A DNA stretch of 64,000 bases from an uncultured Spirochaetota bacterium (GCA_964518675.1 CAZFGQ010000008.1:2365-66364); one strand, 5' to 3'. Counted from the stretch's first letter, positions 30,416-50,381 are shown. Notes: generated by a model not told the origin, from the letters alone. Made by a program: numbers and translations.

Positions 30416-31897
30416 TTAACCTTTCATTACACCCATTGGTATCAATTTAGCAACACGTCCTGCAAGATCATTTTCTTCCACAATTTTTACAATTTCGTCA
30501 ACATCTTTATATGCCTCTGGCATCTCTTCTTTCAACGTTTTTTTAGAAACTGATAGTACAAGTATACCTTTCTTTTCAAGTTCACCCGCTATATCTCTGC
30601 TTTTCGCCCTCTTAACGGCCTGCCTTCTACTTAGTGCTCTTCCCGCACCGTGACAGGTGGTTCCAAAGCTCTTTTCCATACTACCGCTTAAACCCCTTAA
30701 GATATACGATGACCTTCCCATGTCACCCGGTATCAGCACTGGTTGACCTATCCCACTATATTCAGGTGGTATGTCTGGACTCCCAGCAGGAAACGAACGT
30801 GTAGCTCCCTTTCTATGAACACAAACCTTTTCCTTTCGGCCATTAATGTCGTGTTCTTCTATACGGGCAATGTTATGGCTAACATCGTAGAGAATTCTCA
30901 TACCCATTTCTGAGGGAGAAAGTTTGAATACATTTCTGAAACTATCCCTGACCATCTGGGTTATTATCTGCCTGTTTGCCCATGCATAATTGGCCGCCCC
31001 TTTCATTGCACTGAGGTATGCTTTACCGAGGGGGTCGCTGATGTAAATCGATACCAGCTGTGGGTCCGGAAGCTCAAACATCCTCTTTTCTCTCAATTTT
31101 CTCAGGTAATCGTCACATATCTGATATCCAAATCCCCTTGAACCTGTATGGAACATAATAATTACCTGATCCTGGAAGATTCCAAATACCTCCGCAGCCC
31201 CAGGGTTAAAGATCTGGCTCACATAGCTTATTTCAAGAAAGTGATTTCCAGCACCAAGGGTGCCCAATTGATCTTTGCCTCTTTCCCTGGCCTCATTTGA
31301 AATATCAGCAAAATCGGCACCGCCCAGGCATCCCTTATTTTCACAATAGATAAGGTCTTCTTCATCTCCATAACCCTTTTCAACTGCCCATTCTGCTCCT
31401 TTTTCCACAACCCTCTTATGCTCCTTCTTGTTCAAATTTATGATCCCGGTTGATCCCACACCAGCAGGAACAGTGCGATAAATCTCCATCAGTACTTTCT
31501 CAAGATGTTTTTTAAACTCTTCTCTTGTAAAGTTTGTAAGTATAGCCCTGACCCCGCAATTTATATCGTATCCAACACCTCCCGGAGAAACAACCCCGTT
31601 ATCAACAGAGGTTGCCGCGACACCACCTATGGGAAAACCATACCCATAATGTATATCGGGCATTCCAATGGCCCACTTTTTTATTCCAGGCAAACACGCG
31701 ACATTCCTCAACTGTACCAGCGATTCCTGTGTTTCGCTGCTGGATGCCATTCTCTCATCTATAAAAACCCTTGCGGGAACCCTCATCTTCTCCTTTTTTG
31801 GTATTTCAAAAAGCGATTCCCCTATTTTTTTTAATTCAATCGTTTCCACTGCCATTTTCCTCACCTCCCCACTTATCGTTCTGACCAAAAAGCTCAA
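30416..31897 (-). CDS. rtcB: RNA 3'-phosphate/2',3'-cyclic phosphate ligase RtcB
   Basis: 493 aa with RtcB metal-binding histidines and Cys; …GAGNHFLEI…, …HNIARIEEH…. Confidence 0.9.
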   Translation of the reverse strand: MSFLVRTISGEVRKMAVETIELKKIGESLFEIPKKEKMRVPARVFIDERMASSSETQESLVQLRNVACLPGIKKWAIGMPDIHYGYGFPIGGVAATSVDNGVVSPGGVGYDINCGVRAILTNFTREEFKKHLEKVLMEIYRTVPAGVGSTGIINLNKKEHKRVVEKGAEWAVEKGYGDEEDLIYCENKGCLGGADFADISNEARERGKDQLGTLGAGNHFLEISYVSQIFNPGAAEVFGIFQDQVIIMFHTGSRGFGYQICDDYLRKLREKRMFELPDPQLVSIYISDPLGKAYLSAMKGAANYAWANRQIITQMVRDSFRNVFKLSPSEMGMRILYDVSHNIARIEEHDINGRKEKVCVHRKGATRSFPAGSPDIPPEYSGIGQPVLIPGDMGRSSYILRGLSGSMEKSFGTTCHGAGRALSRRQAVKRAKSRDIAGELEKKGILVLSVSKKTLKEEMPEAYKDVDEIVKIVEENDLAGRVAKLIPMGVMKG

Positions 31898-31915
31898 ATT
31901 TCAATACCATACACC

Positions 31916-32344
31916 TCAAATATCAAATATTATCGTAACCCTGTAAATATTTTTCTCCTCATTAACCTTTAAATTATGATACGTGGCAGCCTTTATCTCT
32001 CTTTTCAACAATGAGGGTTCGTTAATCATTTCAATCAGAAATCTGTACGTATTTTTCTTCTCTTTGATATATAGCGAAATCGGAACAAGTTTCTTTGTAT
32101 CCACTAAAAATATAATTCTATTTAAAAGATCAAGGATAACATTTTCCCAAGAATCTTTCTTAACAATCATCTTCTCTTTGATTCCCTTTCTTTTCCCAAT
32201 TCTGGCTTTAATCTCTTCGGGAGGCAACTCTGTAAGTATATTAATCAATGCATTTACAGTCTCACTGAAAAGCTCAACAATACTATTGGCCTCAACCTCC
32301 ACACCAATATCGGCTGTGTGGTCGATAAATTTGTAGCTTCCCAT
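31916..32344 (-). CDS. archease (RtcB activator)
   Basis: The N-terminal FIDHTADIGVEV signature is characteristic of archease. It lies immediately upstream of rtcB. Confidence 0.8.
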   Translation of the reverse strand: MGSYKFIDHTADIGVEVEANSIVELFSETVNALINILTELPPEEIKARIGKRKGIKEKMIVKKDSWENVILDLLNRIIFLVDTKKLVPISLYIKEKKNTYRFLIEMINEPSLLKREIKAATYHNLKVNEEKNIYRVTIIFDI

Positions 32345-32424: not shown

Positions 32425-33189
32425 TCATACAAGGGTCAATATCTCGGCTTCTCCATCGAGCACAAGCACCGTATGTTCAAAATGTGCGGATTTTTTTCCA
32501 TCCACAGTCACAACAGTCCAGTTATCATCCTTAACCATAACATCAGGCTTACCAGCATTCACCATCGGTTCAATTGCAATTGTCATTCCGGAAAGAAGTT
32601 TTGAACCTCTTCCCGCAGTTTTAAAGTTCGGTATTGGTGGCTCCTCGTGCAACTTTTTCCCGACACCATGACCCACAAAATCCCTCACAACTGAAAATCC
32701 GTTACTCTCTACAAAACTTTGAATTGCTATTGAAATATCCGAAACATGGTTTCCATGAATCGCATTTTTAATTCCCCGATACAGAGCCTCTTCTGTTACC
32801 CTCAGGAGCTTTTCATCCTCAGAAGAGATCCGCCCAATTGGAACAGTAATCGCAGCATCCCCATAATAGCCTTCCTTCTGTACGCCCACATCAATACTGA
32901 GAATATCTCCTTCCTTCAACCTGTAACTACCAGGTATACCGTGAATAACTTCTTCATTTACAGAGGTGCATATTGAGGCAGGAAATCCATTGTAATTTTT
33001 AAAGGCAGGATATGCTCCCCTTTTCCTTATAAACTCTTCTGCCTTTTTATCCAGCCAGCCTGTAGTTATACCAGGTTTTATTATTTCTCTTAGATAGAGC
33101 AGCAATTCACCAACTATTCTTGAAGCTTGTCTTATATATTCAATCTCTGTATTATTCTTTAATTCCTGCATCCTCTTTTTCTTTCTCAA
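32425..33189 (-). CDS. map: methionine aminopeptidase type I
   Basis: Metal ligands D/D/H/E/E in pita-bread fold motifs (…GHGVG…, …TIAIEPM…). The start may be at an internal Met (about 33171) to limit overlap with the upstream gene. Confidence 0.9.
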   Translation of the reverse strand: MRKKKRMQELKNNTEIEYIRQASRIVGELLLYLREIIKPGITTGWLDKKAEEFIRKRGAYPAFKNYNGFPASICTSVNEEVIHGIPGSYRLKEGDILSIDVGVQKEGYYGDAAITVPIGRISSEDEKLLRVTEEALYRGIKNAIHGNHVSDISIAIQSFVESNGFSVVRDFVGHGVGKKLHEEPPIPNFKTAGRGSKLLSGMTIAIEPMVNAGKPDVMVKDDNWTVVTVDGKKSAHFEHTVLVLDGEAEILTLV

Positions 33190-33619
33190 GTGTGTGAATT
33201 TCTGCTTCCATATGAAGCATATCCTCGAGTTTAGGTCCCGCCATGTAAGATTCCTCGACTATACTCTTGATATCTTTCTTCTGGCCGCCATTGACCGAAA
33301 TCTCTCCTTCTACAACCACTCCTCTTTCGAGATTAACAACAGGAGCCCTTATGTTGCCAAGCACCCTTCCAGTCGAGAGGAGTAAAACCTCCTCTTCAGC
33401 ATCAATATTTCCGATTACAGTACCACCAACTACAACTCTCTTTGCCACAATGTCAGTTTTAACCTTACCGGTCTCCCCCACAATGAGTTCATCCTCAGTT
33501 CTAACCTCACCTTCAAACCTGCCATCAATCTGTATTGATCCGCTAATATAAAACTTACCCTCAAAGATAGAACCTTCTCCAATCATACTGTTAAGTCTGG
33601 GTTCTGTTTTTGGAGCCAT
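33152..33619 (-). CDS. bactofilin (DUF583 beta-helical cytoskeletal protein)
   Basis: Repetitive beta-helix segments (G.I.G..G..I.G). Confidence 0.75.
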   Translation of the reverse strand: MAPKTEPRLNSMIGEGSIFEGKFYISGSIQIDGRFEGEVRTEDELIVGETGKVKTDIVAKRVVVGGTVIGNIDAEEEVLLLSTGRVLGNIRAPVVNLERGVVVEGEISVNGGQKKDIKSIVEESYMAGPKLEDMLHMEAEIHTLEKEKEDAGIKE

Positions 33620-33824: not shown

Positions 33825-35024
33825 TTAAAGAGGATTTTTCTTTTTCGCCAGATCCTCAATCCAGTTCATATCCTCTTCGTTTATTTCTTTAAACTTACAA
33901 CCGTAGAGAAGATTTGCCTGGTCAATCCTAAAAATCTCAGCCATAACTTCAATATACCTCGAAGGAAATTTTATGGAGGCCTGGATGAAGGTCCCCACGG
34001 TGAGGTACCTTTTTAGCTGGGGTTTAGTTAATTTGAATAGCATACCACCAGCGCTGATATCAACAAGCGGGATATCGTAATCCGTCCCGCTCTCCAGCCT
34101 GAAATAATCATATTTAACTAGAGCCTCGACTAGAAGAGTAGCATAATCCAGAACCCTCAGAGCCTGGAGAGGTTTGATATTTCTGTGGTATTCCATGTCA
34201 TTCTGAAGTCTTATATAACCAACAACTTCTCCCTCAAGTAAAAGCGGAACAAAACATTCTGAGTATATTTTATTGTCCCTTTTCTCCTGAAGCAAATCGA
34301 GTAGCTTATCCTCAGCCTCTTTTCGTGACATACCCTTTGAAATCAGGTATTCAAAAGCTCTTCCAATAGTCAGGATTTTCTCCTCAAAAAATCTCCTTTC
34401 TGTTATTGCATCCTCATAAGAATCATAGATCAAAAATATCTTTCCGCTGTCTTTAACAAGTTCTTCTTCAAAGTTTAATTTTTCATTCGACTTGAAAACC
34501 TTGACCTGAAATTTCTGCGAAAATTCAGAAACCAGATTCTTGATACCACTCAGCACCTTATCAATTGCAGGTTTCGGCTTTTTTACCTCCTGTAGAATTA
34601 CTCTTTCATCAATTCTTGAGGCATCAAGGGATATCGATCTTTCTGCCTTAACAATTATTTTAAACCTCATATATACTTTTTCGTATACACGAATTCTTTT
34701 ATGCTTTCTGAGAATGTTTTTACTTATCTTCTCGGGAACTATAATTAGAACCTTTGATGAGTCCAGCATAGTTGCCGGGCCCGTAAAGTAATGGTAATTA
34801 TTATTGAAAGCGAAGTTAACCCTCACCTCCTGATCAATCTCATTTATTAGCGGAGTCTCAAGTTTGACAATAATTCCATCATTTGTCAATTTTTCAACAG
34901 TACCCCTGTACTCGACACCCCCTGAAATAATATTTATCGGAATATTGAGTTTCTTAAGGTTCTGGAAAATAAGATTTTTTTCCAATTCGCTCGTAACATA
35001 CATTTTTTCAGGCATTAAAGCCAT
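33825..35024 (-). CDS. PilZ-domain protein (YcgR-like N-domain + C-terminal PilZ), putative cyclic-dinucleotide receptor
   Basis: C-terminal PilZ-like DISAGGMLF motif. It is immediately downstream of and co-oriented with the cyclase-HD-GYP gene. Confidence 0.5.
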   Translation of the reverse strand: MALMPEKMYVTSELEKNLIFQNLKKLNIPINIISGGVEYRGTVEKLTNDGIIVKLETPLINEIDQEVRVNFAFNNNYHYFTGPATMLDSSKVLIIVPEKISKNILRKHKRIRVYEKVYMRFKIIVKAERSISLDASRIDERVILQEVKKPKPAIDKVLSGIKNLVSEFSQKFQVKVFKSNEKLNFEEELVKDSGKIFLIYDSYEDAITERRFFEEKILTIGRAFEYLISKGMSRKEAEDKLLDLLQEKRDNKIYSECFVPLLLEGEVVGYIRLQNDMEYHRNIKPLQALRVLDYATLLVEALVKYDYFRLESGTDYDIPLVDISAGGMLFKLTKPQLKRYLTVGTFIQASIKFPSRYIEVMAEIFRIDQANLLYGCKFKEINEEDMNWIEDLAKKKNPL

Positions 35025-35025
35025 T

Positions 35026-37260
35026 TTAACCCATAACCCTCTCTTTCTCTTTTTTCCTTTCTTTCAAAATCTCAATATAAACATCAACAATTTTTGGATC
35101 AAAATACTTGCCTTTACCCTCCTCAAGAATTCTCATGGCTTCTTCTTCTCTAAAGGCCTCCCTAAATGGCCTATCAGATACCAGTGCATGGTAACTATCA
35201 ATCACCCTAATAATCCTGGCCCAGAGTGGAATTTCTTCCCCCTTAAGACCATCAGGATAACCACTCCCATCCCAGTTTTCATGATGATGCTTTATTAAAT
35301 CCACTCCCTCCTTAAACAGATGAAGCTTTTTCTCAACATATTCCGCACCTCTTATCACATGACTCTTAATGATCTCAAACTCTTCAGGGGTAATCTCGCC
35401 CTTTTTGTTAAAAATCTTCTCATCCAGCCCAATTCTTCCCACATCTATAAGAAGTGCTGCAGAGCGGAATTTTATCAGCTCATCTTTTGAAAAGCCCAAT
35501 ACCTTCCCAACAAGTTCAGCATCTCTGGCTATATTTAGAAAGTGCCCACTTATATAAGGAAAAGCCCTTTCAACAGCATCGATATATCTTGCAGCTATCA
35601 AATCAACCACTTCATACACCTCAATGGGCTTCTCCTTTCCCTTTACCCTGATTGTTCCAACGATATTAGCATCAACAAGATACCTGACTTCATCATAAAC
35701 ATTTCTCGTAACAAGGATCTGCCCTGCTTTGGCTATTTCTTCAAGCCTTGCAGCAGTATTAACGGTATCGCCTATAACAGTATAATCCATTCTATCAACA
35801 GAACCCATGTTACCCGCTATTGCCTCACCACAGTTTATTCCTATTCCTATGCCCACAGCCGGTAAACCCTCAGCTTCTCTTTTCGCATTTAACTTTGCAA
35901 TAAACTTTTGCATTTCAATTGCCGCTACCACTGCTCTTTCAGTGTCATTGTAATGGGAAACAGGAGCTCCAAAAACAGCCATAACACAATCGCCAATATA
36001 TTTATCAAGCGTCCCTTCATACTTGAACACAATTTCCGTCATCTCTGTGAGATAGGTATTGAGGAGATTCACAACCTCCTCAGGACTCATCTTCTCAGCC
36101 ATTGAGGTAAAATCCCTGATATCTGCAAAAAGAACAGCAACATTCCTTTTTTCACCTCCGAGCTTTATCTGATCAAGATTGGAAAGAATTTCACTTGCAA
36201 GTTGATGGGATATATATCTCGTAAAAGCATGCCTGAGATTGTGAAGTTTTGTATTTTCAACCGCCATAACCATCTGATTGGCCAGAAGCTTTATTGACTC
36301 AAACACATCCTCATTAAAAGGTTGTTTATTAATTCTACTTGATAGTACAAGAATCCCAATCAGTGCATCTTTGGAGATGAGTGGCCAGAGAACCTCGGCC
36401 TCAAGTTTACCGAGAAGCTCTTTTTCTTCATCTGTTATATTCTCAAGTATGTTCTCAACGAGAATCGGGTTTTTATTCTTTATTAACTCCTTTACTATAT
36501 TTGATTTTGAACTGAGCACGATATTCTGTATCCGCTTTTTATCAAGTCCCCTGCACGCGACTACTGCATATTGAGTATTATTCTCGTTGGTGGAGAGGAG
36601 TATCACAGAAGACCTGCTTAAAGTCCTTCCCATCACATTGAGAAGAAAACTCCCCAGAAAATCCTCTTTATTTAAAGAGGTCAGATCCTCTCCTATTCCG
36701 GTTAACTCCTTAAGTTCCAGTGTTTTTCTTTTTAGTTCTCTCTCTGATGAAACTGCCATATTCTCCATGTAAAGAAGGTACATAATCCTCATTTCCGCCA
36801 TACTGCAAATGGTACATATAAAATCTATTTCCTCCCTCTCTATCTGTTCAAGAATCTTACTTCCCCATATCACAGAAAGATGAGTGACAGCCTTACCTTT
36901 CTTCTTTGGAATTACCAAAAAAGAAGATTTTAAATCAACTCTCTCGTTAAGTATTTTTTCTAGGATAAATTGAAACCCTCTATGATCTATTACTGTCCAT
37001 TCAAGTTTATTTATTTCATCCAGGAACTTCTCCTGAAGGAGAAATGGAAGAATATTTTTTACCTCTCTATCCACAACCCTTGACTCGTAAATCTTGTTTG
37101 ATCCCCGGTCGACAAAAGCATACCAGAGATTTTCAGAAAAAGCCTTTGAGAGCTGTGTGGAAATAAACCCGGGTATCTTATCAAATCGATTTATATTAAT
37201 CAATTCCCTCGAAACTTTATCTGATATGGCAAGAAGCATTTTTAACCGTTCCTCATTCAT
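35026..37260 (-). CDS. GAF-GAF-class III nucleotidyl cyclase (CHD)-HD-GYP multidomain signalling protein; HD motif degenerate
   Basis: CHD motifs FADIRDFT, YIGDCVMAVFG and GDTVNTAARLE. The C-terminal HD-GYP has HHHENWDGSGYPDG, but the HD dyad reads ALLIDVGRIG where the canonical form is ALLHDIGKI. Confidence 0.8.
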   Translation of the reverse strand: MNEERLKMLLAISDKVSRELININRFDKIPGFISTQLSKAFSENLWYAFVDRGSNKIYESRVVDREVKNILPFLLQEKFLDEINKLEWTVIDHRGFQFILEKILNERVDLKSSFLVIPKKKGKAVTHLSVIWGSKILEQIEREEIDFICTICSMAEMRIMYLLYMENMAVSSERELKRKTLELKELTGIGEDLTSLNKEDFLGSFLLNVMGRTLSRSSVILLSTNENNTQYAVVACRGLDKKRIQNIVLSSKSNIVKELIKNKNPILVENILENITDEEKELLGKLEAEVLWPLISKDALIGILVLSSRINKQPFNEDVFESIKLLANQMVMAVENTKLHNLRHAFTRYISHQLASEILSNLDQIKLGGEKRNVAVLFADIRDFTSMAEKMSPEEVVNLLNTYLTEMTEIVFKYEGTLDKYIGDCVMAVFGAPVSHYNDTERAVVAAIEMQKFIAKLNAKREAEGLPAVGIGIGINCGEAIAGNMGSVDRMDYTVIGDTVNTAARLEEIAKAGQILVTRNVYDEVRYLVDANIVGTIRVKGKEKPIEVYEVVDLIAARYIDAVERAFPYISGHFLNIARDAELVGKVLGFSKDELIKFRSAALLIDVGRIGLDEKIFNKKGEITPEEFEIIKSHVIRGAEYVEKKLHLFKEGVDLIKHHHENWDGSGYPDGLKGEEIPLWARIIRVIDSYHALVSDRPFREAFREEEAMRILEEGKGKYFDPKIVDVYIEILKERKKEKERVMG

Positions 37261-37473
37261 CGATCTAGACCCGCTACCTATCTTTATTTTTAGAATAAAA
37301 CTCTATATTATTTACAGTAAAAGAGAGCTTTAATCGGCCAATGCTGAACCAAAAGTTTCCAAAACACAGGGTGAGGATAAATACCGTTTCACTCGATTTA
37401 TAAATATTTGATCTCAATCCTTCTCAATCTTCCCTACATAAAAATCTTTTGAAATAAGGCAGGCCTTTACAGA

Positions 37474-37521
37474 TTATCCTTTTCCTTTCATTGCAATTTA
37501 TCCTTTTCCTTTCATTGCAAT
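37474..37521. repeat. perfect 24-bp tandem duplication (x2) of the last 7 codons plus stop of the STAS gene
   Basis: ttatccttttcctttcattgcaat is repeated twice head-to-tail. Its reverse complement encodes IAMKGKG*. The second unit is the real gene end and the first lies in the 3' UTR. Confidence 0.9.
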
Positions 37522-38208
37522 CTCAAATCTCTTCTGTTTATCAAGTAGCCCCATAGATCTTAATTCTCTTTTAACGCTTCCCGTGCTTGCCTTTTTCCCA
37601 CCATATTGGGGCAGCCGCAACGCTTTGGCAATCTCCTTTACCTCAAAATAGGGATTATCAATAATGACATTGAGTATTCTTCTGCCAAGCTCACTGGTGG
37701 CCATGGAAAATACATCCTCTGCGGATTGTTCAGGTTTCTTTTGCTCAACAGTTTCTGGATTTCTAGATTGTGTGCCTGAGCCAACAGCCGTACTTGCAGG
37801 TTCAGGTATTTTCCGTGTTTTTTCAGAGGATGTTTTTACCGGAACCTCCTCTCCGGTAAAATATGAAATCGCTTCTTCAACACTATCAAAAGATTTCAGA
37901 ATGCTTGAAAACTCCATCAATTCATATACATCATATACATCAGGAGACATATTCGCCAGTACCAGATCGCCGTTGTTCTCCCTGATCTCTCTGATCTCAC
38001 TAACAAAAACGCCCCAACCGGCACTACTCACATAGTCAATATTTTTAAGGTCTACAATAATCTTGTATTTGTTTAGTGCCAGTTGCTCCTCTAGCTTCTT
38101 CTCCAGCTCCGGTGCCGTTGTTGTATCTATGAAACCCTTTGCAGATATGATGGCTATGCTATTATCCCCACCTGCATAGCTCACATTAACCTGGATATCA
38201 GCCATCAA
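37498..38208 (-). CDS. STAS-domain anti-sigma-factor antagonist (SpoIIAA/RsbV-like) with C-terminal winged-helix-like extension
   Basis: STAS fold with a phosphorylatable Ser region (…DYVSSAGWGVFV…). A disordered linker is followed by a ~50-aa C-terminal module homologous to the C-terminus of the adjacent kinase-phosphatase. Confidence 0.7.
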   Translation of the reverse strand: MMADIQVNVSYAGGDNSIAIISAKGFIDTTTAPELEKKLEEQLALNKYKIIVDLKNIDYVSSAGWGVFVSEIREIRENNGDLVLANMSPDVYDVYELMEFSSILKSFDSVEEAISYFTGEEVPVKTSSEKTRKIPEPASTAVGSGTQSRNPETVEQKKPEQSAEDVFSMATSELGRRILNVIIDNPYFEVKEIAKALRLPQYGGKKASTGSVKRELRSMGLLDKQKRFEIAMKGKG

Positions 38209-38356
38209 AACCTCCTGAACTTTTTACATATTTAAAACAGTTTTCTTTAAACAACTTGTTCTAATGAATTGTTTATCGCAATTATAAAATTTTTCAAGAA
38301 AAATCGATTCTTATTTTAATAAAGAATTAAAATGGATCATAATCAAGAAAATAATC

Positions 38357-38530
38357 GATATTAGAACAAATGTCGAGTTTTCTGAAAAATAGAAATCTTA
38401 ATGCAAAATAAAACCAAAAATGTTGCAGCGCCGGCGAACTTCTAACAATTTATATTTATATCCGTTGATTTTTTTATTTTGTATTTATAATTTACGTCTC
38501 ATAATGAAAACTCGAAGTTCGCCCTATTAA
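38357..38530 (+). repeat. dispersed intergenic repeat, copy A (full length, about 175 bp)
   Basis: It aligns end-to-end with copy D at 62662-62838, with the core about 87% identical. It aligns in reverse complement with copies B and C. Shared blocks are aatgtcgagttttc, gaaaaatagaaatc..aatgcaaa, aaaaatgttgcag.gccggcgaacttcgaacaattta and the 3' ataatgaaaactcgaagttcgccc. Confidence 0.85.
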
Positions 38531-38564
38531 ACAGATTTTCTAATTTTACATTATAATATCTTAA

Positions 38565-40943
38565 TTACCTGTATGAAGCTCCAGTTGGCAAAGCTCTTTT
38601 TGCAAATGCCTCACGTTTTTCCCTTGTATCGAGCTTCATCCTTATAAGTTCTCTTCGAACAGTACTTTCCTTTATATCATAACCTCCATACTCCTCGGAC
38701 TGAAGCAACTTTGTAATTCTGCTTACACCATATTCCGGATGTTCTCTTACTATCTGAACAATTGCCTTAACCTGTTCATGAGTAGCATGTGTAAGTTCGA
38801 TTTCTTCTTCCTCCTCTTTCCTCTCTATCTTAAGAGCATCATCACCATACTTTTCTCTTTTCTCCCGCAATTCGAGATATTCTTCATAACTAATTCCCGT
38901 CTTTTCAAGTGCCTCCTCAACCGGCATACCTTCCTCTATTAACTGGAAGAGAGTCAGTCTCTTGGAGTATTCAATCTCTGCAACGCTCATTTCAAGTTTT
39001 ATTACTATGAATGTAATATCATCGGTCTGAGGGTATCCCTTTGTAAACTCCGCTATCTCCTGGTTTAATCTGTTTTTAAAATCCGAAGCTGGAAGATGAT
39101 GGTACTTTTTTATAAACTCTATTAATCTTTTCTCACCGAACTGCTCTCTCTTTTCATTCATAGCCTCGGTGATTCCGTCCGTGTATAGAAACAAAAGATC
39201 ACCTTTCTTCAATTTTAATCTTTCACTGGTAATTCTCTTTCTGAACTCGTCCGGATCTCCAAGATCAATTCCAACAGCTATGCCACGGGGATTTAAAAAA
39301 CTTATAGATTTTGTGGAATCCCTGTACAGTATCATCGGATTATGGCCTGCACTTGCGTAATTTACCATTCTCTTCTTGTTGTCCAATATGACATAAAACA
39401 TGGTAACATACATTCCCTTTCTTATATCGCCCATTGCTGCCTGATTAACTTTTATCAGAACATCACTCGCTCTCTTATTCCCCCTTGCCTCCAGTCTCAT
39501 GGTGGTTCTTATCATCGTCATAACCATAGAACTACCAATCCCCTTACCCGAAACATCAGCTACAACAATACCTATTGAGTTCTCATCAACCTCAAAAAAG
39601 TCGTAGTAATCACCACCAACCTCAAGAGCGGCTCTGTATGATGCATCAATTTCAAACCCTTCCAGTCTTGGAACCTCCTTGGGCAAAAGGGCATTCTGTA
39701 TTTCCTGGGCCAGTTGAAGCTCTCGCCTTAATCTTGTTTGATCAGTTAACTGTCCCTGGGTAATTCTGAGGTTCCTCATAATTTCATTAAATGCCTGGCC
39801 TATCTTGCTTATTTCTGGATTTCTTATATCAAGCCTCAGTTCTCTTATCTGTCCCGACATACTCAATCTAGCTATTTCATCGGCAAGTTTTCTCAGTGGA
39901 ACTATGAATGTGGAGCCTATTACAAAAACACCGATAATCGTTGTTGACCAGAAGAATAAAGCGATAAATGCTACCTTTAATCTTTGTTTAACCAGATCTG
40001 TAACCTCTGCAAACTTATCTTCAGGTATTCCGATATGGACTTCACCGAGTTTAGTATCTTCAAATCTTATAACCGCAGAAAAATCATTGTAAACCCTTCC
40101 ACCACCTCCCCTGTAGTTAAATACCTTTGCCGTATCTTTCGCTGTAAGCGGTTTTACTCCCGGTGGATAGGTATATCTCGTATAAATCTTCTTCACATCA
40201 GTATGGGCAATTATCGTTCCATCATTTCTTGTAATAACAATATACTCAAGGGGTTCTTCATTCTGCTTAACACTGGCGGCAAGATTGATGAGGCCGAGAT
40301 CATCTCCCTCAAGGATCATGTCAGAAGCTGCAGATGCTATCTGTTCTGTTATCGAACGGTATCTATCTAAAAACTTGTCTCTGATAGCTTTAATCTGATA
40401 TCTGGAGCCTATATTATAAACAATTACTATAAGCGCTGTAATAAACGCAAATGCATACAGAGCATATCTCACCCTCATTGAGAACTTTGCCCTGACACCG
40501 GGTACAGCTCCTGTGATTGCTTCTGGCTCGAGATAAACCTTCATTGTCAGAACATTTGTATCTTCGATACGCTGGAACTGTACTTCATCTATTAGTTTTT
40601 TGATCAGCCATATTCCAAGTCCACCCTTTCTTCTTGTCTCGACGTATTTATAAAGGTCAGGTTCAACAACTGAACTCCAATCAAACTCAATCCCCCAGTC
40701 AATTATCTTAATTTCTACGTAATCTTCCCTCCTCGCCATCTCAATTCTAAAGTCGCCTTTTCTACCAGGGTAGGCATGTCTTATAATGTTTGAAACAGCT
40801 TCATCAACAGCCAGTTTAACCTCGCTGACCTGTTTCTCCGAGAGTCCCATTTTCCGGCCGTATTTAACAACAAAGTTTCTGACTTTTATTAAATTGGATG
40901 TTTCAGCAGCGAATTGTGTACTTTTTACCTTATTTGCTTTCAT
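38565..40943 (-). CDS. fused partner-switching kinase/phosphatase: N-terminal RsbW/SpoIIAB-like HATPase_c anti-sigma kinase + 2 TM + HAMP-like + PP2C (SpoIIE/RsbU) phosphatase + C-terminal wHTH-like module
   Basis: N-box EAVSNIIRHAY and G-box GGLGIWLIKKL. Two hydrophobic helices. PP2C motifs DASYRAALEVGGDYYDF and VADVSGKG. Confidence 0.75.
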   Translation of the reverse strand: MKANKVKSTQFAAETSNLIKVRNFVVKYGRKMGLSEKQVSEVKLAVDEAVSNIIRHAYPGRKGDFRIEMARREDYVEIKIIDWGIEFDWSSVVEPDLYKYVETRRKGGLGIWLIKKLIDEVQFQRIEDTNVLTMKVYLEPEAITGAVPGVRAKFSMRVRYALYAFAFITALIVIVYNIGSRYQIKAIRDKFLDRYRSITEQIASAASDMILEGDDLGLINLAASVKQNEEPLEYIVITRNDGTIIAHTDVKKIYTRYTYPPGVKPLTAKDTAKVFNYRGGGGRVYNDFSAVIRFEDTKLGEVHIGIPEDKFAEVTDLVKQRLKVAFIALFFWSTTIIGVFVIGSTFIVPLRKLADEIARLSMSGQIRELRLDIRNPEISKIGQAFNEIMRNLRITQGQLTDQTRLRRELQLAQEIQNALLPKEVPRLEGFEIDASYRAALEVGGDYYDFFEVDENSIGIVVADVSGKGIGSSMVMTMIRTTMRLEARGNKRASDVLIKVNQAAMGDIRKGMYVTMFYVILDNKKRMVNYASAGHNPMILYRDSTKSISFLNPRGIAVGIDLGDPDEFRKRITSERLKLKKGDLLFLYTDGITEAMNEKREQFGEKRLIEFIKKYHHLPASDFKNRLNQEIAEFTKGYPQTDDITFIVIKLEMSVAEIEYSKRLTLFQLIEEGMPVEEALEKTGISYEEYLELREKREKYGDDALKIERKEEEEEIELTHATHEQVKAIVQIVREHPEYGVSRITKLLQSEEYGGYDIKESTVRRELIRMKLDTREKREAFAKRALPTGASYR

Positions 40944-41221: not shown

Positions 41222-42940
41222 TTATTTTTGTTCACAAAACTCCTTTATTCTCAAAATATCATCGTAGATTTCGGGATTCATTTTGACATCTGTCCTTGTA
41301 AAACTCTCATCAATAATCTTTAGGGCTCTCCTGTACTGTCGAGACCTTGCATAGTAAAGAGCAAGATTAACATAAGCTTCGGGCATATAAGGAAACTCTG
41401 CTATAAGCCTCTTATATATATTTTCCTTCTCACCACCTCCCCCCGATTCTGCAAAAAGGACCATAAATCTATAGTAATCCTCGGTACTTTCGATCTTATC
41501 CCTGATTCTGTTTAGAAACTTTAAAGCGATCTCCCTATGGCCCCTTTTTAGATAAATCGTAGCAACCCTCATTATAGCCCTTACATATTCCCGAGTAGTA
41601 ACATTTCTGGAATAATCCTCCGAAAGGTATAAATCTATCGCACGATCCTGGTAACCATATTTTTCAAGCTCATTTATCACAATATTCCTATCTATTGAAG
41701 ACTTACTCTTCCTCAGAGCAGACATTAAATTTTCATAAGCCATTCCCTCTTTCCCTATACTGAAGTTCAGTTTTGCCTTTGCCAATTCATAATAAAATGA
41801 ATCTCCAAGCTTTTCTTTCATTTTTGAAATCAAATCCAAAGCATCCTGAACCCTTTTCTCTTTAATATAAAGGGATACAAGGTTATAAAAAGCATGCCCC
41901 TGTATTTTACCATCATGGAGGGCTTTACTATAATATTCAATGGCCCTATTATACCTTTTCTCTGCCAGATAAAAATCACCCACTACACCATTTGGCAGAC
42001 CTTCCTCGCGAGGGAAAAACCTTGCTAGATCATCCAGTGCGCGTGCAAACTTCCCTCTTTTAAACAGGGTATAGAGATATAATTCAATCATCGCGGGATC
42101 TCTTTCTTCACCACATAAATTAAACAATAACTCAGAAGCTCCATGAAGATTTCTATTCTCGATTTTAAGCAGAGCAAGATAATATTGAAGCTTTGAAACT
42201 TCAGGAAATATACCCATAGCCAGTTCAAAAGCTCTGATTTTATGGGCAATTGGCACTTCATTTATCCTGGCTCCAATATAAACTGCGCTTAGACCCCTTA
42301 TCACATCAGGTGCAGCTTCATTATTGAGAATACCTTCAAGCATCTCCAGGGCTTTATCTTCACAGCCCATTTTCATATAGCACATGGCCAGATTATACTG
42401 CACAAGTGGGTTATCATTGATCGCACTAAAAATCGAAGCTGCTGAGGAATATTTGGACTTAGAATAATAGAGGGATGCAAGAAGCATGGCGTTAATCGTG
42501 AATTTAGGCCATTTACGATATATATCCTCGCATATATTTATCGCTTTCTCCATATATCCCCTCTCAACATTTAAAACAGCGATATTATATGAGGAATAAT
42601 AATTGTTTTTATCGTATCTTAACGAGAGATTGTATAATTCTGAAGCCCGTTTATGGTGTCCCTGAAGTGCCTGAATATTGCCCATGTAGAGGTAGGCAGT
42701 GCTGAGGAGCTTTTTATTTTTCTCCTTCTCTACTATCCTTTCAAAAATCTCCTCGGCTCTTTTATAATTCCCCGTTCTGTAGTTGTTTATCGCTTCGATA
42801 AATACCCTAGAAGGATATCCAGGATAGATGCGTGAACCAAATTTATCTTCCCTGCCAGTTGTTATAAAAAGAATAATACCAGCTGCCAGTATAGCAACCG
42901 CACCAAATATCTCAAATATAACTTTTTTTTCCAATCTCAT
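41222..42940 (-). CDS. membrane-anchored TPR-repeat protein
   Basis: N-terminal TM helix followed by many TPR-like repeats (…YYLALLKIEN…, …AIEYYSKAL…). Confidence 0.65.
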   Translation of the reverse strand: MRLEKKVIFEIFGAVAILAAGIILFITTGREDKFGSRIYPGYPSRVFIEAINNYRTGNYKRAEEIFERIVEKEKNKKLLSTAYLYMGNIQALQGHHKRASELYNLSLRYDKNNYYSSYNIAVLNVERGYMEKAINICEDIYRKWPKFTINAMLLASLYYSKSKYSSAASIFSAINDNPLVQYNLAMCYMKMGCEDKALEMLEGILNNEAAPDVIRGLSAVYIGARINEVPIAHKIRAFELAMGIFPEVSKLQYYLALLKIENRNLHGASELLFNLCGEERDPAMIELYLYTLFKRGKFARALDDLARFFPREEGLPNGVVGDFYLAEKRYNRAIEYYSKALHDGKIQGHAFYNLVSLYIKEKRVQDALDLISKMKEKLGDSFYYELAKAKLNFSIGKEGMAYENLMSALRKSKSSIDRNIVINELEKYGYQDRAIDLYLSEDYSRNVTTREYVRAIMRVATIYLKRGHREIALKFLNRIRDKIESTEDYYRFMVLFAESGGGGEKENIYKRLIAEFPYMPEAYVNLALYYARSRQYRRALKIIDESFTRTDVKMNPEIYDDILRIKEFCEQK

Positions 42941-45597: not shown

Positions 45598-46758
45598 GTG
45601 AATAAAGCGAAGCATTTATTTACATCCGAATCGGTTTCTGAGGGACATCCCGATAAAATAGCTGACCAAATCTCAGATGCAATACTCGATGCCGTACTTG
45701 AACAGGATCCTTACGGAAGGGTTGCCTGTGAAACTCTTGTAACCACAGGTCTGGCATTTGTAGCGGGCGAAATGAGCACAAAAGCATATGTTGACATCCC
45801 AAAGGTAGTAAGGGGAATGATAAAGGCAATAGGATACACTGAACCGGAACTTGCATTTGACTGGGAAACATGTGCAGTTGTTACCAGTATTGATGAACAG
45901 TCTCCTGACATAGCCCAGGGTGTACTTGGAAAAGGCCTTCATAAAGAAAAAGGTGCAGGCGACCAGGGAATGATGTTTGGGTACGCTGTAAATCAAACAC
46001 CGGAGTTAATGCCACTTCCAATCATGCTTGCCCATAAATTGCTCCTGAGACTTTCTTCCCTGAGAAAAGAAGGAAAAATCCCATATCTCAAGCCCGATGG
46101 AAAATCTCAGGTAACAGTGGAGTATATAGATGGAAAACCGGTGAGGGTCGATACAGTTGTACTCTCAACACAACACTCACCTGAGGTTACCTATGAGGAA
46201 ATCTACAACGACATGGTGGAAAAAGTCATTAAGATGGTAATTCCACCAGAGTTTCTCGACGAAGAAAATATTACATACCACATAAATCCAACTGGAAGGT
46301 TTGTTATCGGAGGTCCACACGGAGATACTGGTTTGACAGGGCGTAAGATAATGGTTGATACGTATGGAGGTTTTGGAAGCCACGGCGGTGGATGTTTTTC
46401 CGGGAAAGATCCTACAAAGGTGGATAGAAGCGGAGCATACATGGCACGTTATGTTGCTAAAAATATAGTTGCATCAGGGCTTGCAGATGAATGCGAGCTT
46501 CAAGTAGCCTATGCAATTGGAGTCGCTAAACCCGTATCAATAATGGTCGATACACACGGCACCGGTCAGATAGATGACGAGGGAATTGTCGAAGCGATTA
46601 AAAAAGTTTTTGATTTTACCCCAGAGGGAATAATAGAAACCCTTGATCTTAGAAAACCAATTTACGTAAAAACTGCAGCTTACGGACACTTTGGAAGAGA
46701 AGATTTTACATGGGAAAAAACAGATAGAATAGAAGATATCAAAAAGGCCATTAAATAG
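45598..46758 (+). CDS. metK: S-adenosylmethionine synthetase
   Basis: [37 protein letters not shown] and [19 protein letters not shown] motifs. GTG start with a GGAG SD. Confidence 0.95.
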
Positions 46759-47167
46759 TTTTCACCTTTTCGGCCTCTGGCTCTCCGGATAATTTTTTTT
46801 CTGCTTCGTCAAAAGAGGTCATCTGGCAACTACCCTCAAAAACAACGCCATCTGCTATCTTGAGTTTTCTGGTTTTTATATTACCATACAGCTTACCGGT
46901 TGAAAGCATCTCAAGTCTCTCTTTGGCCTCCACATCGCCTCGAACCTCTCCAGCTATTATTATTGAGTTTGCCTTGATATTTGCTCTAACTTTTGCAGTT
47001 TCGCCGATGATCAAAAATCCATCCGAGATAATTTTGCCTCTAAAATTACCCTCTATCTTTAAGGAAGAGTGAAACCTGAGCGTACCATTGAAAGAAGTTG
47101 TGGGACTTAATACCGTAGCCACCTTTTCTGCTTCTTTAATATCTGCGTATTCATCCTTTTTTGCCAT
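46751..47167 (-). CDS. bactofilin (second paralogue)
   Basis: beta-helical repeats [31 protein letters not shown]... Confidence 0.75.
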
Positions 47168-47593: not shown

Positions 47594-49225
47594 TTATCCA
47601 ATCCTCAAGTCAACTATTTTTTTAAAAATGGCAAAAATTAACAAAAAAATTAAACCCAGAACAGCTATTTTTGGCAGGAAATCTCCATGTTTTGTATAAA
47701 AAGTTATTATCTCCCGTTCCATTACAGGAACATCGACTATAAGATAATCTGTTAAGAATGGCTCCAATACCTTCAAAACCCTACCCCATGGATCTATACC
47801 CGCTGTTATACCCCCGTTGGCAGAGCGTACAAGCGATCTCCTGTTTTCAATAGCCCTGAAAATTGAAATCCTAAAATGTTGCCATTCAGCTTCAGCACTA
47901 CCTGTCCAGGCATCATTCGTAACATTAACAAGTACCTGACTACCCCTCAAAACAAACCTTCGAGTAAGATCTCCAAAAACATCCTCAAAACATATCAAAG
48001 GACTTACATATATCCCATCCAGATCAAAAACGGTATATTCAAAACCAGGTGTAAATTCCTCAACTCCTGCTTTTCTCATTGATTTATCAACAAACGGAAA
48101 TAGTTTATCGTATGGGAACCATTCTCCAAATGGAACAAGATGGATCTTTCTATATTTTCCCCTGGGTATTCCGGCCTCATAAAAGATTACAACATTGTAA
48201 AAATTCCCGAAATAATTATCATCCACAACTTCTCCTTCGAACTCAAGAGTACCAAATATTACCGGCTTTCCTATTTTCTTAAAAAATCTATCAACCATCA
48301 TCGCATATCGATTTCTTTTCCTCAAATAGAAATCATATAAAAACGGAACACTTGATTCACTCCACACAACCAGCTCCGGGTCCTCTCTTAATGCTTCCTC
48401 TGTTAATCTAAACTCAAGAGAGAGATTCTTAACCACATCAGGATTCCACGGGTCAAAGTTTGGCTGCAGAAGACAAACCCTCAGGCTCCTAACAGAAGGA
48501 GAAGCCAACCCGATTTCACTTCCAGAGTTTTTAAGCACGATAAACCCATAAAATGCATTTACAGATACAAGAACAACAACGGTACATAAACCGAATATAA
48601 CCTCCAGCGAGATATTTTTCTGAATAATAAAGGAAAAAACGGCATGGGTAACCATCACATTTGCAAGGATAATCAGAAAATCAATCCCCCATACTCCAAA
48701 TATCGAGGCTGATTGTATCATAAAAAGGATATCATACTGCGAATAACCGGGAATACCCCAGGGGAATGCTAGAAACCCCCTAGATTTGAGATAATCTACA
48801 AATAACCACCAAGAGGAGATTCCAATCACAGAAGGCCAAAATACTCTTTGAAATCTTGCACGCCTTATTATATCAAGGATAACCCTTGCTCCAAAACCCG
48901 CCATTAAGAAAAAAATAGTTGTTGTAAGAATTCCACCTGGCAGTGCAGCTGGATGCTTGTAATTTCTCATCCAGAAAAGATAAAAAAAATAAAAAAGAAA
49001 CGAGGTTAATGTCAGAAAAATTAATATTCTTGAATATTTTTTTTCAGCGAATACGACAATTAAAATAGGTACATAGGAAAACCAGATAAAAAAGGAAAGA
49101 TACGAGAAAGTAAAACTTATGTAGAGTAATGAAGCCGAAAGGATAGCTAAAAAATAATTCAAGCCTTTTATTCTTTTTATCTTATTATGAGCTGGATTCA
49201 ATAAAGGGCTTAATTTCTCAGACAT
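47594..49225 (-). CDS. lnt: apolipoprotein N-acyltransferase
   Basis: An N-terminal multi-TM domain plus a C-terminal CN-hydrolase domain with E/K/C positions. Confidence 0.85.
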   Translation of the reverse strand: MSEKLSPLLNPAHNKIKRIKGLNYFLAILSASLLYISFTFSYLSFFIWFSYVPILIVVFAEKKYSRILIFLTLTSFLFYFFYLFWMRNYKHPAALPGGILTTTIFFLMAGFGARVILDIIRRARFQRVFWPSVIGISSWWLFVDYLKSRGFLAFPWGIPGYSQYDILFMIQSASIFGVWGIDFLIILANVMVTHAVFSFIIQKNISLEVIFGLCTVVVLVSVNAFYGFIVLKNSGSEIGLASPSVRSLRVCLLQPNFDPWNPDVVKNLSLEFRLTEEALREDPELVVWSESSVPFLYDFYLRKRNRYAMMVDRFFKKIGKPVIFGTLEFEGEVVDDNYFGNFYNVVIFYEAGIPRGKYRKIHLVPFGEWFPYDKLFPFVDKSMRKAGVEEFTPGFEYTVFDLDGIYVSPLICFEDVFGDLTRRFVLRGSQVLVNVTNDAWTGSAEAEWQHFRISIFRAIENRRSLVRSANGGITAGIDPWGRVLKVLEPFLTDYLIVDVPVMEREIITFYTKHGDFLPKIAVLGLIFLLIFAIFKKIVDLRIG

Positions 49226-49510
49226 TCAGTTTATCTTCATTTTAGAGATAGCTTTTAACTCCTTCCCTGGTCTAAAATAAGGAACCTTTCTTTTAGGAAC
49301 AATGACAGATTCACCTGTTTTTGGATTTCTTGCCTCTCTTTGTTCCCTCGTTTTCACCTCAAAAGTTCCAAATCCCCTTAACTCTATATGTTCATCGTTC
49401 TTAAGCCCTTCTTTAATAATCTCAAAGAAGGTGTCTATCACTCTTGCAATATCTTTTTTTGTAAGACCAAGCCTTTCATTAATTTCTTCTACGATTTCCG
49501 CCTTTGTCAA
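49226..49510 (-). CDS. hup: HU/IHF-family nucleoid-associated DNA-binding protein
   Basis: 94 aa, …RGFGTFEVKTREQREARNPKTGESVIVPKRKVPYFRPGKELK. Confidence 0.9.
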   Translation of the reverse strand: MTKAEIVEEINERLGLTKKDIARVIDTFFEIIKEGLKNDEHIELRGFGTFEVKTREQREARNPKTGESVIVPKRKVPYFRPGKELKAISKMKIN

Positions 49511-49791
49511 AACGCCCTCCTTTTATAATCCAGATTCAAAATAATCAAATATGTTTTCTTGCAGCCCTCAACAGCCACGAACAACAGGTAAATTAATCAA
49601 TAGTGTTTAATCGCAGGGAGGATTTTATAAACCTTTTCAGTGGCATTTATTAAGAATTATACATAAGAAAAATTATAGTGCAATATGAATTTTTAACAAT
49701 AATTACTTTTTTATAAAAAAAATAAAATCTAACTTATAGTTTTAACCACCCATTAAACCTCAGAGATAAAGGCACTACCGGTAGTTAATTA

Positions 49792-49920
49792 GTACGAGTT
49801 CGAGTTTTCTTTTTGGAGCGAAAATTATTGATTTAAATTTTTCGAAGTTTACCGGCAATGCAACATTTTTAATTCTATTTTGCATTCGGATTTCTATTTT
49901 TCAGGAAACTCGTCATTGTC
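49792..49920 (-). repeat. dispersed intergenic repeat, copy B (reverse orientation, with an internal deletion of about 45 bp)
   Basis: The reverse complement matches the copy A/D core (gaaaaatagaaatccgaatgcaaaatagaattaaaaatgttgcattgccggtaaacttcgaaaaatttaaatcaata). It lacks the AT-rich spacer. It lies between rpsT and hup. Confidence 0.8.
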
Positions 49921-49938
49921 TATAATTATGGGCTATAA

Positions 49939-50223
49939 TTATGATGAGAGGTTCTGGGCAGTTTTAGCTGCTAGTATTCTCTTTGCCATTCTGGACTTTT
50001 TTCTAGCTGCTGTATTCCTTTTTATAACTCCTTTTCCAGCAGCCCTATCTACAACCGATACAAATGAACGAAAAAGCTCATCAATATTTGAAAAATCTTT
50101 TTCTTCGATAGTTTTGAGTATCTTTTTAGCAGAGGTTTTTATTCTTGATTTCCAGGATCGGTTTCGAATCCTTGCCTTTTCGGCCTGTCTTGCTCGCTTT
50201 TCAGCAGATTTGTGCTTTGCCAA
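49939..50223 (-). CDS. rpsT: 30S ribosomal protein S20
   Basis: MAKHKSAEKRARQAEKARIRNRSWKSRIKT... Confidence 0.9.
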   Translation of the reverse strand: MAKHKSAEKRARQAEKARIRNRSWKSRIKTSAKKILKTIEEKDFSNIDELFRSFVSVVDRAAGKGVIKRNTAARKKSRMAKRILAAKTAQNLSS

Positions 50224-50381
50224 TTAATACCCCCAGCAGATTTATTTATGAATTATGAGAAATAAATGGTTAATGTGCAAAGCATAAATTATTAATTTTA
50301 TATTAGGACGTCAAGAGATACGGGGGTAAATATCAAAAATTCACGACTCATTCTTCAATTTTTATTCTTTCATACGTACAA

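Follow-up and report, generated by a model that had tools for sequence, protein, structure and literature searches.

A 64,000-nucleotide stretch of DNA from an uncultured Spirochaetota bacterium (GCA_964518675.1, CAZFGQ010000008.1:2365-66364; hereafter referred to as the window, with positions counted from its first nucleotide) carries two adjacent genes on the minus strand that together encode a putative compact partner-switching module. The first gene (38565..40943) specifies a 792-residue protein, predicted to be a bifunctional transmembrane serine kinase/phosphatase with a C-terminal bipartite helix-turn-helix (HTH) region, for which the name KP is coined here. The second gene (37498..38205) encodes an anti-sigma-antagonist type STAS domain followed by an HTH tail, and the C-terminal modules of the two proteins are homologous, far beyond what chance could produce. 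The reading that we favor, albeit with slightly less than even confidence, is that the pair acts at the membrane as a phospho-switch of the kind known from SypE/SypA, one that is self-contained, works independently of sigma factors, and is read out on DNA by the HTH of the STAS protein. It is favored because the catalytic and acceptor residues are intact, the two genes are adjacent and sometimes fused, the STAS tail is basic, the tails co-occur, no sigma factor is encoded in the 64 kb, and both SypE and CapS provide precedents.

Architecture of KP

An initial annotation of this DNA had placed the module at positions 37498-40943 and had quoted a C-terminal peptide from each protein. Both open reading frames lie there on the minus strand, and both peptides are found within them. 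The description of the locus as a compact unit of kinase, phosphatase, and STAS protein is borne out by the Pfam domain assignments, the conserved catalytic motifs, and the adjacent STAS gene. With respect to KP itself, the kinase domain, the two transmembrane (TM) helices, the HAMP-like linker, and the PP2C domain had been correctly recognized, whereas a periplasmic Cache domain and the first of two HTH subdomains (residues ~654-704) had been overlooked.

The N-terminal domain of KP (40539..40913, minus strand) is of the RsbW/SpoIIAB type and matches HATPase_c_2 from residues 11 to 135 with a Pfam E-value of 1.5e-26, which is above the cut-off. The motifs of the GHKL fold are readily identified, namely the N-box asparagine, Asn 52 (EAVSN52), the G1 motif, D82-W-G84, and the G2 motif, G107-G110 (GGLG). 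Asn 52, Asp 82, Gly 84, Gly 107, Gly 108, and Gly 110 are invariant across 29 full-length KP homologues with sequence identities as low as 36%. Against the NCBIfam models, KP scores 67.5 bits for RsbW (8.8e-19; equivalog cut-off of 145 bits) and 47.9 bits for SpoIIAB (1.2e-12; equivalog cut-off of 135 bits). Judging from these equivalog scores and from the lack of a sigma factor gene in the window, KP does not appear to be an orthologue of RsbW or SpoIIAB proper.

The membrane and sensor portion (39894..40472, minus strand) consists of TM1 (residues ~158-180), a periplasmic single Cache domain (residues 193-313), and TM2 (residues ~322-350). The Cache assignment is based on a Pfam match to sCache_3_2 (5.4e-7, 30.2 bits versus a gathering score of 28.4). 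In the hydropathy profile, two hydrophobic segments bracket the Cache domain, each with basic residues on its outer side. The topology predicted from these features places the kinase, HAMP, PP2C, and tail regions in the cytoplasm and the Cache domain in the periplasm. TM2 leads into the HAMP-like linker (39765..39917, minus strand; residues 343-393), where the match to Pfam HAMP, at 9.9e-4, lies below the gathering score; a HAMP annotation is precomputed on many KP homologues.

The PP2C/SpoIIE phosphatase domain (38994..39584, minus strand; residues 454-650) covers the full PF07228 profile with an E-value of 1.7e-46. Its metal-binding aspartates are contained in the motifs GGDYYD(443), DVSGKG(463), TDGI(588), and DDIT(641), and Asp 445, Asp 463, Asp 589, Asp 641, and Asp 642 are likewise invariant in the 29 full-length homologues. 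Both the kinase and the phosphatase activities of KP are predicted to be directed at the adjacent STAS protein.

The STAS protein

As listed, the open reading frame of the STAS gene extends over 37498..38208 with a TTG start codon and 236 residues. Translation most likely begins at the ATG at 38205, giving a protein of 235 residues, because this codon is preceded by an AGGAGG ribosome-binding site and because 235 residues is the length of a database protein of 100% identity (P0121). The homologues of similar length number 188.

The STAS domain, of the anti-sigma-antagonist type, is delineated by residues 16 to 113 (37870..38163, minus strand; PF01740, 1.2e-18), and the protein scores 69.5 bits against TIGR00377 (1.9e-19), above the cut-off of 53.45. 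Its matches in the PDB are SpoIIAA, RsbV, and TM1442. The predicted phospho-acceptor, Ser 62 in the 236-residue numbering (codon 38023-38025, minus strand), resides in the sequence YVSSAGWG and aligns with the serine of the DSAG motif in TM1442 and with the phosphoserine loop of SpoIIAA. This acceptor motif is kept in 118 of 120 STAS homologues. The region between the STAS domain and the tail (residues ~119-165) is a disordered, low-complexity linker of ~50 residues that is variable in sequence and has no conserved alignment columns. The RED-like HTH tail itself (37501..37713, minus strand; residues ~166-236) carries a net charge of +7 here and of +3 to +15 across the homologues.

A 24-nucleotide tandem duplication is located at the end of the STAS gene, at 37467-37514, with two copies of ATTGCAATGAAAGGAAAAGGATAA that are 88-100% identical. 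The second copy, positioned just past the stop codon, repeats the last seven codons and the stop.

The shared C-terminal tail

The C-terminal region of KP contains two HTH subdomains. The first (38832..38984, minus strand; residues ~654-704) is PAI-like and of the HTH_28/HTH_23 type. The second (38598..38780, minus strand; residues ~722-782) is RED-like, of the HTH_32 type, and is the module held in common with the STAS protein. The homology of these C-terminal modules, asserted in the initial annotation, is evident from several comparisons. BLASTP aligns residues 657-777 of KP with residues 98-227 of the STAS protein at an E-value of 1e-8. When 21 STAS tails are aligned jointly with 19 from KP, all taken from a diverse set of metagenomic homologues, no internal gaps arise, and the P, L, E-L, L, and R positions show little or no variation. 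Finally, a hidden Markov model (HMM) built from either tail family detects the other.

AlphaFold2 (AF2), run on an alignment of the last 150 residues of KP, produced two three-helix bundles, each with a predicted local distance difference test score (pLDDT) of ~90, joined by a disordered linker. The helices of the first HTH in that model extend over positions 12-28, 33-40, and 44-57. For the STAS tail, the model has a pLDDT of 90.4 and a predicted template modeling score of 0.79, with helices at positions 9-20, 26-32, 45-55, and 60-70. DSSP assigned only helices and no strands to either model. The tail had originally been described as a winged HTH of the DeoR/Lrp type with a "YGG insertion." That it is an HTH agrees with the AF2 models, but it is not a winged helix, because neither model contains a β-strand. 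Neither tail matched a DeoR or Lrp HTH family in Pfam or NCBIfam, and the affinities are with the HTH domains of transposases.

These affinities emerge from searches of several kinds. The N-terminus of the NCBIfam IS481 family matches residues 661-778 of KP at 7e-9, and that of IS3 at 1.8e-5, both far below the cut-offs for the full-length families. Pfam HTH_32 matches residues 720-765 at 1.6e-4, below the gathering score. The best PDB profile match of the tail is the RED subdomain of Sleeping Beauty (5unk), which, at an E-value of ~0.04, is borderline; it spans the whole domain including the YGG loop, which aligns with EETGTKVS of Sleeping Beauty. The supposed insertion is the ordinary long loop between helices 2 and 3 of the transposase HTH family. 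The first HTH of KP gives a weak match to the N-terminus of TnsB. With Foldseek, the top matches for the KP tail are Pax paired domains, MuA, and TnsB, and those for the STAS tail are led by Pax, Fur/PerR, PagR, Lrp (E = 3.1), and SETMAR, in all cases with E-values greater than 1. HTH_28, HTH_23, HTH_29, HTH_32, and HTH_Tnp_1 annotations are precomputed on many KP homologues, and proteins retrieved with the tail profile pass the gathering scores for HTH_32, HTH_21, and HTH_Tnp_Tc3_2. The tail family numbers 632 clusters.

As modeled, the KP tail corresponds to a bipartite, paired-like (PAI plus RED) HTH of the transposase type, and the STAS protein has the RED-like half only. In comparison with the IS630/Tc1-mariner, IS481, and IS3 transposases and with Pax (6pax), KP displays the same arrangement of two three-helix HTH bundles and a linker, and the STAS protein the RED-like bundle. 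KP and the STAS protein differ from the transposases in that they have no transposase catalytic domain and join the tails to signaling domains; the resemblance is, moreover, a weak one, and within the Spirochaetota clade the first bundle is acidic. Indeed, the net charge of the first HTH is -7 here and -4 to -10 in that clade versus +1 to +7 in distant homologues, and its would-be recognition helix reads SYEEYLELREKRE here versus S(T/P)STYYRLKRLRD in the distant proteins. This acidity suggests, at the level of sequence, that the original binding function of the first HTH may have been lost or changed. The second HTH of KP is mostly basic across homologues.

Outside of the KP and STAS proteins, many of the strongest matches to the tail are found in large family-2 synthase-like glycosyltransferases, which bear two tandem HTH_28 plus HTH_32 pairs at their N-termini (P0264, P0274, P0324, P0326, P0336, P0348, P0368, P0377, and P0288). 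Their hosts are Patescibacteria/Microgenomates and one Aenigmarchaeota metagenome-assembled genome (MAG). As partners of KP and the STAS protein they were considered and rejected, given that Patescibacteria and Aenigmarchaeota are not lineages in which KP and the STAS protein are found. Three to five tandem copies of the tail HTH are present in P0241, P0246 (together with T2SS-C/PDZ), and P0320.

Distribution and co-occurrence of the tails

A search for KP homologues yielded 1768 matches. Full-length relatives of ~790 residues with 65-77% identity come from Spirochaetota MAGs, and homologues at 35-46% identity are found in Firestonebacteria, Eisenbacteria, Latescibacterota, Calditrichota, KSB1, and Ignavibacteria. 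The KP-STAS pair occurs in Spirochaetota, Calditrichota, Ignavibacteria, Eisenbacteria, and others, and in every related locus with enough sequence a STAS gene adjoins KP. KP and STAS are fused into a single protein in five of the 149 best tail-bearing representatives. A fusion of KP and its bipartite HTH to three STAS domains in tandem, encoded by a single open reading frame of 1444-1469 residues, was observed in a Latescibacterota MAG (L007, 5962-10368) and in an unclassified MAG (L013, 5884-10215). The STAS domains fused in these two proteins have no tails, and further tail-less STAS genes follow downstream.

Among all fetched loci, a tailed KP is accompanied by a tailed STAS protein in 35 and by a tail-less one in seven, whereas a tail-less KP is accompanied by a tailed STAS protein in none and by a tail-less one in 39 (Fisher's exact test, 5e-16, for loci that are phylogenetically non-independent and a metagenome set that was retrieved with the tailed STAS protein as the query). 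In the subset retrieved by KP alone, the corresponding counts are 8, 2, 0, and 39. Thus, in the related loci, the tailed STAS protein is seen solely beside a tailed KP. A STAS tail is no closer in sequence to its cognate KP tail than to non-cognate ones (15-36% identity, with scattered ranks). Concerted evolution or repeated duplication of the tail was rejected on these grounds; the duplication is old, and the tails are paralogues that have traveled together.

Proposed mechanism

In the scheme that we favor, the N- and C-termini of KP would both be cytoplasmic, and the periplasmic Cache domain would sense a ligand. The TM2-HAMP segment would relay the signal inward, shifting the balance between the N-terminal RsbW-like serine kinase and the C-terminal PP2C domain, which would share one substrate, namely the neighboring STAS protein at the conserved Ser 62 of its YVSSAGWG sequence. 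As output, the system would use the basic, transposase-derived RED/HTH_32-like HTH that trails the STAS domain on a flexible linker. Depending on its phosphorylation, the STAS protein would either stay bound to the kinase domain at the membrane or be set free, and perhaps its oligomeric state would change as well. Its location or state would then set the DNA occupancy of its HTH, on the model of CapS; we infer the direction of the switch. The paralogous HTH pair of KP may bind the same kind of target or may keep the enzyme and its substrate together.

A DNA-binding function of the STAS tail is presumed here. The initial annotation had already suggested that DNA binding by this protein might be gated by its phosphorylation state, and by analogy with CapS/CapK, which provides an experimental precedent (PMC13373217), such gating may apply. 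The annotation's further statement that no sigma factor or anti-sigma gene lies nearby can be extended to all 64 kb of the window, since neither Pfam on ~45 open reading frames, which are essentially all of those present, nor an HMM scan turned up a gene for a sigma factor, an anti-sigma factor, or another STAS protein. Likewise, no sigma factor gene was observed in the 16-20-kb neighborhoods of six relatives, and no candidate output partner emerged from the window or from the genes next to the module in relatives.

A more far-reaching version of this scheme, which we would call unlikely on present evidence although by no means far-fetched, envisions a signal that passes in a single step from periplasm to chromosome and employs neither a sigma factor nor a response regulator. 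A domesticated transposase HTH would have been duplicated onto both the kinase/phosphatase and its STAS substrate, such that the two proteins either come together on shared DNA or on one another's HTH, or compete for these, with phosphorylation of the STAS protein setting promoter occupancy.

Several observations weigh against a readout on DNA. First, the linker of ~50 residues in the STAS protein is unlike the compact arrangement in CapS, and hence a CapS-like allostery cannot be assumed. Second, all fold matches to DNA-binding HTH domains are weak (Foldseek E-values of 1.4 or higher; PDB profile E-value of ~0.04), and the acidity of the first KP HTH in the Spirochaetota clade counts against DNA binding by that subdomain. 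Third, relatives of the tail HTH are carried by membrane polysaccharide synthases in bacteria of the candidate phyla radiation, where DNA binding is not obviously expected. Fourth, a tailed KP is accompanied by a tail-less STAS protein in seven loci, which indicates that some lineages can dispense with the STAS tail. Lastly, no operator was recognized: a survey of the spacer between KP and STAS, and of the region upstream of KP, for repeats or palindromes gave short AT-rich matches only, an alignment of the spacer with those of two relatives was too diverged to read, and in the spacers and upstream regions of 23 distinct relatives no palindrome or operator is conserved, k-mer enrichment across those spacers yielding only the ribosome-binding site and a sigma-70-like promoter.

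The strict co-occurrence of the tails on an enzyme and its substrate poses the question of whether they bind DNA or each other. A possible, if somewhat doubtful, answer is that the shared HTH serves as a protein-protein docking module. The STAS tail would bind the HTH pair of KP, or both would bind a scaffold such as a TPR protein, thereby tethering the substrate, and the output would be a protein bound by one phospho-form of the STAS protein, as for SypA, HsbA, and Anabaena All4160. Docking is in keeping with the finding that a tailed STAS protein never occurs without a tailed KP, and it accounts for this co-occurrence and for the covalent KP-STAS fusions as well as does DNA binding. In L007 and L013, for example, the STAS domains fused behind the KP HTH are tail-less, and a covalent tether would make a docking tail unnecessary. 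Within the Spirochaetota clade, the first KP HTH is acidic and the STAS tail basic, which might suit an interaction between them; the STAS tail, however, is strongly basic even where the first KP HTH is also basic, as in L001. TPR proteins are conserved neighbors and are sometimes fused behind the HTH, related HTH pairs occur on membrane family-2 glycosyltransferase synthases, no operator was found in the spacers, and the established outputs of STAS proteins are often other proteins (PMC6482189; bioRxiv 10.64898/2026.04.08.717354). On the other hand, every characterized relative of this HTH type, whether from a transposase or a paired domain, binds DNA. In addition, tails of cognate pairs show no greater resemblance than those of non-cognate pairs, a measure of similarity only that says nothing about co-evolution of an interface.

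An improbable, though conventional, explanation is classical partner switching at a distance. Here the RsbW-like domain of KP would sequester a sigma factor encoded elsewhere in the genome, unphosphorylated STAS protein would release it, and the HTH tails would be accessory. RsbW and SpoIIAB are the closest matches of the KP kinase domain, the fused proteins CrsR and HsbR bind RpoS, which is encoded away from them (PMC6482189), and our inspection covers 64 kb of the genome. Nonetheless, no sigma factor gene is present in the window or in the neighborhoods, of up to 20 kb, of the six relatives, the scores fall far below the equivalog cut-offs (67 versus 145 bits for RsbW and 48 versus 135 bits for SpoIIAB), and the explanation leaves two conserved, co-occurring HTH tails unaccounted for.

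That the tails are merely decaying, functionless remnants of an inserted transposase gene, as their nearest families (the N-termini of IS481, IS3, and IS630 transposases) might hint, is effectively refuted by their conservation, for they retain the same length, a gap-free alignment, and the (near-)invariant P, L, E-L, L, and R positions from Spirochaetota to Calditrichota, Ignavibacteria, and Eisenbacteria, their AF2 folds are confident, and they are accompanied by neither a transposase catalytic domain nor inverted repeats nor frame disruptions.

The sigma-independent phospho-switch read out on DNA, if correct, would have implications beyond this locus. Many widespread STAS partner-switching modules, including those of SypA, chlamydial RsbV, and others, have an unknown output. 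The KP/STAS family offers one that is readable, in the form of an HTH on the STAS protein, along with direct extracellular sensing. It would extend the CapK/CapS finding that STAS proteins can be transcription factors from phage defense to environmental sensing in Spirochaetota and the Fibrobacteres-Chlorobi-Bacteroidetes group, and it would represent the recruitment of a transposase DNA-binding domain into signaling. The one-step route from periplasm to chromosome, if it exists, would constitute a new output logic for partner-switching modules, one conserved in several phyla of uncultured bacteria.

The intergenic spacer and genomic setting

The KP and STAS genes are separated by an AT-rich spacer of 359 bp (38206..38564, minus strand), which contains the ribosome-binding site of the STAS gene and probably its promoter. 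In 29 related loci the gap ranges from 87 to 743 bp. A promoter-like sequence, TTGAAA-18-AACAAT, is positioned at 38297-38268. Seven relatives (L089, L099, L104, L105, L108, L110, and L111) have a sigma-70-like promoter upstream of the STAS gene, composed of a T-rich tract, TTGAAT, ~17 nucleotides, and TAATAAT. The conservation of such a promoter in several relatives implies that the STAS gene is transcribed separately from KP. An Rfam scan of the entire window gave zero matches, and thus the long spacer is not a known RNA. The spacer also harbors a perfect 10-nucleotide inverted repeat, GGCGAACTTC at 38433-38442 and GAAGTTCGCC at 38514-38523, with its arms 71 nucleotides apart. These arms are the sole GC-rich elements of the AT-rich region and are not kept in L086 or L087.

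In the close clade the gene order is MurI-SurA-NusB-TPR-KP-spacer-STAS, followed in some members by genes for a GAF-cyclase-HD-GYP protein and a PilZ protein. The TPR gene (41222..42940, minus strand) encodes a membrane-anchored protein of 572 residues, with Pfam TPR matches and an N-terminal TM segment, and is the conserved upstream neighbor of KP. It lies directly upstream of KP in L086 and L087 and in the distant loci L001 and L005, and TPR domains are fused to the C-terminus of KP, behind the HTH, in P0118, P0293, and P0315. The TPR protein is a probable accessory component of the module.

Directly downstream of the STAS gene is that for a 744-residue protein (35026-37260, minus strand) containing GAF, class III adenylate/guanylate cyclase, and HD-GYP-type HD_5 domains, and after it one for a PilZ-domain protein of 399 residues (33825-35024, minus strand). 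This pair is found downstream of the STAS gene in L087 as well, but not in L086, and a PilZ gene is near the module in the distant locus L005.

Elsewhere in the window, two bactofilin genes (33152-33619 and 46751-47167) flank the region, an RtcB-archease pair is located at 30416-32344, and a REC-HD-GYP response regulator is encoded at 56456-58096. At ~49200-50400 the gene orientation flips from mostly minus to mostly plus and the cumulative GC skew reaches its minimum; ~1.1 kb of this segment is AT-rich and largely non-coding. A replication origin at ~49200-50400 was considered and is not supported, as no cluster of DnaA-box-like sites was observed there.

Comparison with known systems

The RsbU/RsbV/RsbW and SpoIIE/SpoIIAA/SpoIIAB systems of Bacillus, together with chlamydial RsbU, employ the same three folds as KP and the STAS protein (reviewed in PMC8256260); they differ in having a separate kinase protein and a sigma factor as the output. 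Chlamydial RsbU, like KP, combines a periplasmic Cache-like sensor with HAMP and PP2C domains.

The fusion of a kinase and a phosphatase in one polypeptide, which the initial annotation had regarded as unusual, has precedents in SypE, with the same domain order (PMC3610818), and in HsbR and CrsR (PMC6482189). SypE from Vibrio fischeri contains an N-terminal RsbW-like kinase domain with an essential Asn 52, a central REC domain, and a C-terminal PP2C domain, and its substrate is SypA (PMC3610818, PMC8256260). According to the published description, the likeness to KP is one of architecture: a kinase domain of ~140 residues, a central module, and PP2C follow in the same order, the asparagine is residue 52 of each protein, a STAS protein serves as the substrate through its conserved serine (for KP, by prediction), and there is no known sigma output. 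The two differ in that the central module of SypE is a cytoplasmic REC domain fed by a phosphorelay, whereas KP has a TM-Cache-TM-HAMP arrangement and hence a direct transmembrane sensor. Moreover, neither SypE nor SypA contains an HTH domain, SypA consisting of STAS only. In HsbR/HsbA from Pseudomonas and CrsR/CrsA from Shewanella, a fused PP2C and RsbW-like kinase likewise acts with one STAS antagonist (PMC6482189). Unlike KP, however, HsbR and CrsR have the domain order REC-PP2C-kinase, are cytoplasmic, and carry no HTH tails; the outputs are RpoS, FlgM, and HsbD.

CapS is a STAS-winged HTH repressor that leaves DNA when the RsbW-like kinase CapK phosphorylates the serine of its STAS domain; the role of the HTH in CapK is unknown (Chambers et al., EMBO J 2026, PMC13373217). 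Both systems comprise an RsbW/SpoIIAB-like kinase and a STAS-HTH substrate, with an HTH on each of the two proteins and no sigma factor; the phosphorylation of that substrate and its output on DNA, established for CapS, are presumed in the present case. The STAS protein described here similarly combines STAS and HTH in one polypeptide encoded beside an RsbW-like kinase gene. The HTH of CapS, however, is a MarR/ArsR-type winged helix that packs on the STAS domain, whereas here it is a RED/HTH_32 three-helix domain at the end of a long, ~50-residue disordered linker. CapS is absent among the PDB sequence matches of the STAS protein. CapK is a cytoplasmic HTH-STAS-GHKL protein that is switched on by single-stranded DNA, has no phosphatase domain, and is tied to defense operons. 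KP, by contrast, has a membrane Cache sensor and a built-in PP2C domain, and its gene resides among housekeeping and second-messenger genes.

Each single ingredient of the KP/STAS module is thus already known. What appears to be new, within the literature searched, is their combination in a SypE-like enzyme that spans the membrane and ends in a bipartite HTH of the transposase type, paired with a STAS protein bearing the paralogous HTH, and the conservation of this pair across phyla.

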